Positions 55,500 through 55,761 of a stretch of DNA of 64,000 bases are shown here, piece by piece (position 1 is the stretch's first letter; every line of letters begins with the position of its first letter). Source of the DNA: Escherichia coli O127:H6 str. E2348/69 (GTDB lineage: Bacteria > Pseudomonadota > Gammaproteobacteria > Enterobacterales > Enterobacteriaceae); assembly GCF_000026545.1 (NCBI RefSeq), contig NC_011601.1, one strand, 5' to 3'. The notes under the pieces are model-generated. The model made no database searches and was not told the DNA's origin. It saw only the letters and a list, made by a program, of their open reading frames with translations. Made by a program: the position numbers and the translations under genes.

Positions 55500-55547
55500 A
55501 AAACACTCCTTTTAAGACAGTTTTGACTGGCTGTGATAAAGGTTAAA

Positions 55548-55566
55548 CCTTCCAGCAAGGGGAAGG
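55548..55566. promoter_or_regulatory. CueR operator (CCTTCC-N7-GGAAGG dyad) in the copA promoter
   Basis: ccttccagcaaggggaagg lies ~50 bp upstream of the copA start between -35-like TTGACC and -10-like elements with the long spacer typical of MerR-family promoters. Confidence 0.75.
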
Positions 55567-55761
55567 TCAAGAAATTAATAAACCAGGCGGGTAAAAGTCC
55601 GTAAAGATTAAAAAATCGGCTCGATTTGCATCAGGATTAGACATTTATCTCTTTGTTTTCCTGTGGTTAAGTTGCGGGTGCTAAGTTAAATCAGGATGCC
55701 TGAAAATCGGCACCGGGGTGAGGAATTACCTCCCGCATCTATAAAAAGGAGTTAACAAAAG

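Follow-up and report, generated by a model that had tools for sequence, protein, structure and literature searches.

The window, by which we mean the whole 64-kb stretch of Escherichia coli E2348/69 DNA that was analysed, holds the gene for the Cu(I)-exporting ATPase CopA on its minus strand and, divergently from it, glsA, ybaT and cueR on the plus strand (Table 1). The gene driven by the promoter described below encodes a CopA equivalog and is, hence, a copper-homeostasis gene; the equivalog model NF007952 and RefSeq both bear out the sequence-only reading, which had named copA as the target. The regulator passed the cut-off of a further model, TIGR02044, as well (205.6 bits vs 147.4), and matches the solved CueR structures 1Q05, 4WLW, 4WLS, 6LDI and 6XH7. 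It is identical to K-12 CueR at 133 of 135 residues, and the two substitutions, R93Q and D103N, are both located in the long helix. Ser77, Cys112 and Cys120 are all present in the E2348/69 protein, as judged from the alignment to K-12 CueR; the roles of the three residues, that of the two cysteines being to bind Cu(I), are known from the CueR structure. The distance from the end of the operator dyad to the start of cueR is 2,548 bp, and the regulator does lie where it had been placed, about 2.5 kb from the dyad and beyond glsA-ybaT.

Table 1. Features of the copA-cueR region. Positions are those of the window, except in the last row, where they refer to loci of other strains, each given with its locus number
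Feature	Position	Strand	Basis or remark
copA, Cu(I)-exporting P-type ATPase, regulated target	52995..55499	-	NCBIfam NF007952 equivalog, 1747 bits (cut-off 1316); RefSeq agrees
-10 hexamer TAACCT, 2 bp past the right half-site	55540..55545	-	direct reading
Promoter spacer of 19 bp, 2 bp above the optimum	55546..55564	-	counted; published property of PcopA (PMC8169799)
CueR operator, 7-bp arms ACCTTCC / GGAAGGT and 7-bp centre	55547..55567	-	core 55548-55566
-35 hexamer TTGACC, copA promoter	55565..55570	-	direct reading; same in K-12
Putative attachment-site core CTTGACCTTCCCCTTGCTGG of P2-family prophages of other E. coli strains, unoccupied here	55552..55571	-	junctions in 24A16CRGN010 and H1827/12
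glsA, glutaminase A	55762..56694	+	NCBIfam equivalog above cut-off; RefSeq
ybaT, APC family permease	56697..57989	+	RefSeq; amino-acid transporter models below their cut-offs
Relic, 3' end of an HlyD-family type I secretion adaptor gene, 94 bp	58020..58113	+	RefSeq: frameshifted partial pseudogene
cueR, Cu(I)-sensing MerR-family regulator	58114..58521	+	NCBIfam NF007590 equivalog, 306.6 bits (cut-off 244); RefSeq
Core and junctions at prophage-bearing loci	L127 9781-9800, 44396-44416; L128 2541-2560; L129 26580-26610		

Some further features of the locus were recorded along the way. Within copA, the site of programmed -1 frameshifting is intact (55288-55299, minus strand) and the same as in K-12: CCCAAAG, with a -1-frame TAA after it. 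The short frameshift product in K-12, CopA(Z), bears the annotation of a soluble Cu(+) chaperone. A scan of positions 50000-60500 against Rfam returned sroB/ChiX only and left the copA-glsA spacer empty; the small RNA ChiX (Rfam sroB, 81 bits) is found at 51574-51657 (+), between ybaK and ybaP, as it is in K-12.

Read on the minus strand, the copA promoter runs tttc TTGACC ttccccttgctggaaggtt TAACCT ttatcacagcc...aaggagtgttttATG, with the copA ATG at 55499. The two hexamers are separated by the 19-bp spacer TTCCCCTTGCTGGAAGGTT, and in it lies an exact CCTTCC-N7-GGAAGG dyad, which reads CCTTCCAGCAAGGGGAAGG on the plus strand (55548-55566). The dyad and the promoter are interlocked: the ACC of the -35 hexamer TTGACC belongs to the 7-bp operator arm, an overlap of 3 bp, and on the other side, in GGAAGG-TT-TAACCT, the right half-site is followed by the -10 hexamer after 2 bp. 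The sequence-only reading, which had described this dyad as sitting between copA's -35 and -10 hexamers with a long spacer, was accurate on each of these points. A consensus promoter scan limited to spacers of 16-18 bp found no promoter at the copA operator, an empty result that is to be expected because the spacer here is 19 bp long.

This geometry is that of the CueR activation complex resolved by cryo-EM, with a core of CCTTCC-N7-GGAAGG in a 19-bp spacer; in the published register of PcopA the repeat overlaps the -35 element by 3 bp and the box is 2 bp away from the -10 element, and activation is impaired if the box is displaced by 1 bp (PMC8169799). The E2348/69 promoter agrees with the published core, spacer length, -35 overlap and -10 distance alike, and the MerR-family arrangement proposed from the sequence thus stands in register as well as in geometry (PMC8169799). 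Furthermore, positions 55570-55544 of the window are the 27-mer TTGACCTTCCCCTTGCTGGAAGGTTTA, the copA promoter fragment that was used in gel shift and EPR work on CueR (PMC9004249). Compared with the characterised promoter of K-12 MG1655, only two differences were observed in 321 aligned bases of the copA region, both of them outside the -35/operator/-10 block: an additional A in the 5' leader and, approximately 100 bp upstream, a single substitution. From the -35 through the 19-bp spacer with its dyad to the -10 the two strains are identical, the gene downstream is the same, and so is the gene order, copA / glsA-ybaT-cueR. The dyad does not differ from the characterised CueR box at any of its conserved positions (0 differences), and the claim that it is a CueR box therefore holds.

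The wider neighbourhoods of the two strains are less alike. The ybaQ-copA gap (52938-52994) is 57 bp long in E2348/69 vs 315 bp in K-12, K-12 being longer by some 258 bases; ybaQ encodes a HigA-family antitoxin, to which the ybaP-copA interval of the other genera that were examined showed no match. In addition, the cueR-ybbJ interval of E2348/69 (58522-61860) carries a 3.3-kb insert that K-12 is without. Besides small hypothetical ORFs and one that is frameshifted, the insert contains, on the minus strand at 60003-61019, the gene of a 338-aa protein in which a YadA membrane-anchor domain is present.

Based on the above, the dyad in the copA promoter is almost certainly the operator of CueR, lying within copA's sigma-70 promoter. 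CueR binding, DNA distortion and the copper response of the E2348/69 promoter itself would follow from what has been published on the identical K-12 sequence. It should be noted that the CueR operator at copA is a textbook element, already known, to which the present analysis adds nothing new.

The layout of a dyad in a long spacer is common to MerR-family operators, and another possible explanation is that the site is bound mainly by a different metal sensor of this family, of the ZntR, SoxR or GolS type. ZntR, however, has a different dyad and a 20-bp spacer, and GolS is not known to occur in E. coli. Although CueR-like and HmrR-like signals are almost identical (PMC1526738), the copA operator has the same sequence as the DNA to which CueR was bound in the crystal, cryo-EM and gel-shift studies (PMC8169799; PMC9004249), and a CueR equivalog is encoded 2.5 kb from the dyad. 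We therefore consider a principal role of such a sensor extremely unlikely and treat the site as that of CueR in what follows.

Within the window the copA operator is the only site of its kind. CCTTCC-N7-GGAAGG has a single exact match in the 64 kb, against a chance expectation of 0.00, and an exact match occurred in none of 100 shuffled sequences. When two mismatches were allowed, five further sites resembling the dyad appeared; all five fall within ORFs that are 150 aa or longer, and promoter hexamers accompany none of them (0/5), from which we conclude that the window contains no second CueR box. The motif scan that had been proposed for additional CueR boxes consequently brought up nothing beyond the copA operator, and a search for a relic of a second operator upstream of cueR was likewise negative.

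The box is conserved both within the species and far outside it. The 401 bases around the copA operator, which match the EPEC strain E2348/69 at 100% identity, were found in 5,422 of 5,426 complete E. coli genomes; the 61-bp copA promoter was present in the same number (5,422/5,426), at 99% identity or more in 4,955 and with at least 80% coverage in 5,416. Four of the 5,426 complete genomes were without a match to the copA promoter region, for which a deletion or a fault of the assembly may be responsible. Across species, one genome per species was scanned with the pattern TTGACCTTCC-N7-GGAAGG, which yielded at least 120 loci with 124 boxes from approximately 100 species, a sample that is selected on the -35 and the dyad and does not represent an unbiased survey. 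Among the 124 boxes listed, at least 67 immediately adjoin a CopA, CueO or CueR homologue, a lower bound given that E. coli proteins were the only probes. The -10 element was not part of the search pattern, and yet positions 3-8 downstream of the listed boxes read T (80/124), A (118/124), three variable bases and T (83/124). The motif TAnnnT, 2 bp past the box, indicates that a -10 hexamer is located there and that the spacer in these promoters, too, is 19 bp. In 12 copA loci of Enterobacterales the -35/operator/-10 block hardly varies, whereas directly upstream of the -35 the genera have unrelated sequences; this contrast between the conserved block and the divergent flank marks the edges of the functional element.

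Short palindromes do arise by chance, and one could regard the dyad as a fortuitous palindrome or a hairpin of no regulatory role. The empty shuffles and the exact position of the dyad between the hexamers are against this; moreover, the dyad is kept across genera while its flanks diverge, and copper genes of many phyla have this box, too. The probability left to a chance origin is vanishingly small, and we consider that reading refuted by the conservation of the site together with its identity to an experimentally bound one.

The operator at copA can be further compared with two known relatives. In the K-12 cueO promoter, the second known CueR promoter, the -35 TTGACC, the half-sites, the 19-bp spacer and the 2 bp to the -10 are all the same; the spacer contains CCTTCCCGTAAGGGGAAGG and is followed by the -10 TATGCT. 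What differs is the 7-bp centre (CGTAAGG, vs CCTTGCT at copA), the -10 hexamer and the chromosomal location, cueO being found at another locus, outside the 64-kb window. With MerR at the mer operator/promoter, the prototype of the family, the copA site shares the dyad in a 19-bp spacer, the use of one site for both repression and activation, and activation by DNA distortion. The mer system differs in its metal, Hg(II), and in its dyad sequence; furthermore, merR is transcribed in the divergent direction, and from an overlapping promoter, whereas cueR of E2348/69 is not adjacent to the promoter that it would control.

The mechanism by which CueR would act in E2348/69 is taken from work on the identical sequence (PMC8169799). 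With 19 bp between them, the -35 and -10 elements would be 2 bp too distant, and out of phase, for the sigma-70 RNA polymerase. A CueR dimer would clamp the dyad in the spacer on the face of the DNA opposite the polymerase and, as long as Cu(I) is missing, would keep the DNA in a non-productive shape, leaving the promoter poor. Binding of Cu(I) at Cys112 and Cys120 would cause CueR to kink and under-twist the spacer, by which the hexamers would be brought to about the distance, and into the phase, of a 17-bp promoter; a contact with the non-conserved region of sigma would help activation. Transcription of copA would then supply CopA for the export of Cu(I) from the cytoplasm, while CueR, encoded 2.5 kb away, would act in trans. 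In K-12, according to the original CueR papers, the copper induction and the footprint are reportedly lost only when cueR is deleted.

Synteny probing of Enterobacterales revealed a conserved backbone, ybaK-ybaP-copA on one side and cueR-ybbJ-qmcA on the other, and a junction between the two that is repeatedly interrupted. In Superficieibacter, two Enterobacter genomes, Pantoea sp. IMH and Photorhabdus (loci L024, L042, L055, L097 and L102), the cueR ATG is located 9-11 bp from the copA -35, in divergent orientation, and glsA-ybaT is not found at the copA-cueR junction; in these species the cueR transcript would have to start within the copA promoter region, like that of merR. In E. albertii, glsA is located as it is in E. 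coli, the junction in Citrobacter sp. FP75 is occupied by a haem-uptake cluster (ABC ATPase, FecCD permease, ChuX and a radical-SAM enzyme; L063 6219-10497), and that in Rahnella by an ABC transporter (L106 6412-8143). The promoter/operator block and the backbone are common to Escherichia and to the copA-cueR divergon of Salmonella and other Enterobacterales, whereas in Escherichia the copA operator and cueR are split by approximately 2.5 kb consisting of glsA-ybaT and a gene relic. As cueR abuts the copA promoter in the five other Enterobacterales, the copA/glsA-ybaT-cueR layout of Escherichia is probably derived, a view that was partly published in 2006 (PMC1526738). That comparative study described the Salmonella copA-cueR divergon as being without ybaS-ybaT (PMC1526738), and a survey from 2018 reported ybaT beside glsA in Escherichia and Shigella (PMC6250119).

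The relic immediately upstream of cueR points to a further insertion at this place. Except for a 1-bp deletion in an A run, it aligns with the 3' end of an intact adaptor gene in strain 24A16CRGN010; K-12 likewise retains just the tail of the adaptor gene, with a 1-bp deletion. The intact gene of 24A16CRGN010 belongs to an island of approximately 24 kb between ybaT and cueR (L127 1-7025, L130 7246-8421), where a giant SiiEA-like adhesin, a TolC-family protein and an ABC exporter are encoded together with the HlyD-family adaptor; the stop codon of the adaptor gene overlaps the cueR ATG. Repeats, direct or inverted, on either side of glsA-ybaT would have pointed to a mobile unit, but a search for them returned only short matches of chance size.

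The sequence-only reading had also stated that regulator and target are unlinked by two unrelated genes. The intervening position of glsA and ybaT was confirmed; to call them unrelated goes too far, as ybaST reportedly responds to copper, apparently not via CueR directly, and is required for tolerance of the metal (PMC10903455; PMC9628877). The response is an induction. These observations lend some weight to the idea that the dyad is a shared, bidirectional operator, which also drives glsA-ybaT(-cueR), so that regulator and target would form one divergon and would not be unlinked at all. The 2006 study did describe a ybaS-ybaT-ybbI(cueR) operon divergent from copA and proposed ybaS and ybaT as members of the copper regulon (PMC1526738), the copper induction of ybaST and its requirement for copper tolerance are on record (PMC10903455; PMC9628877), and no plus-strand terminator-like site was found in the ybaT-cueR interval. 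However, reading the plus strand at the dyad, we observed neither -35-like nor TAnnnT -10-like hexamers at MerR-type positions, and the glsA start codon is approximately 195 bp away from the dyad. The copper induction of ybaST is, according to a review, not directly tied to CueR (PMC10903455), and what immediately precedes cueR is the relic of another gene and not part of the design of a glsA operon. A single divergon in E2348/69 therefore seems improbable to us, and we prefer the reading of an operator that serves copA, with CueR supplied from the far side of glsA-ybaT.

A different kind of interruption was encountered in strain 24A16CRGN010, in which a P2-family prophage of 34.6 kb is inserted between glsA and copA, inside the CueR operator. 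On the glsA side the junction reads ...tttcTTGACCTTCCCCTTGCTGG|ggacaaag (phage) and on the copA side (phage) aaaatgcTTGACCTTCCCCTTGCTGG|AAGGTTTAACC. The 20-bp core CTTGACCTTCCCCTTGCTGG, which extends over the -35, the left half-site and the 7-bp centre and takes in the first GG of the right half-site, is present at both prophage junctions in 24A16CRGN010 as well as in H1827/12, each time between bacterial and phage DNA, and an integrase gene adjoins one of the junctions. The copA promoter is rebuilt intact in the 24A16CRGN010 lysogen, where it is the sole exact box in a 47-kb stretch. In total, the operator is occupied by a P2-family prophage in 18 of the 5,426 complete E. coli genomes. Six of them carry the prophage type seen in 24A16CRGN010; the 12 others carry a second, degraded P2-family type, whose integrase is 82% identical to that of the first and whose junction is at the same point.

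We consider it rather probable that the CueR operator also serves as attachment site for an integrase lineage of P2-family phages which is as yet uncharacterised. Crossover would take place in the 7-bp centre, the half-sites would serve as inverted core-binding arms, and the -35 and left half-site brought in by the phage would rebuild the regulation of copA. Among 50,697 phage records, no match was found to the predicted attP, ...AAAATGC-TTGACCTTCCCCTTGCTGG-GGACAAAG..., nor was there any close relative of the integrase (best identity 53%). We came across no description of a prophage site at copA in a literature search that was incomplete for P2 integration sites, and because of this incomplete coverage the novelty of the attachment site cannot be asserted. 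The repeated interruption of the copA-cueR junction, by glsA-ybaT in Escherichia, the haem-uptake cluster in Citrobacter and the ABC transporter in Rahnella, may also have come from site-specific recombination of this sort; we regard this as much less likely than the use of the operator as an attachment site.

PcopA and CueR are the model system for MerR-family activation by DNA distortion, and it is for exactly the sequence found here that crystal and cryo-EM structures are available. For the window itself the operator is a firm annotation anchor, which identifies it as the copA-cueR region of E. coli with a single CueR box. The side observations, i.e. the separation of cueR from its target and the prophage site, are more informative than the operator, and are mostly about other strains. 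The separation of regulator and target in Escherichia is probably a derived state that arose from successive insertions. Both observations illustrate that a conserved regulatory dyad can be situated at a recombination-prone junction and still keep its function.
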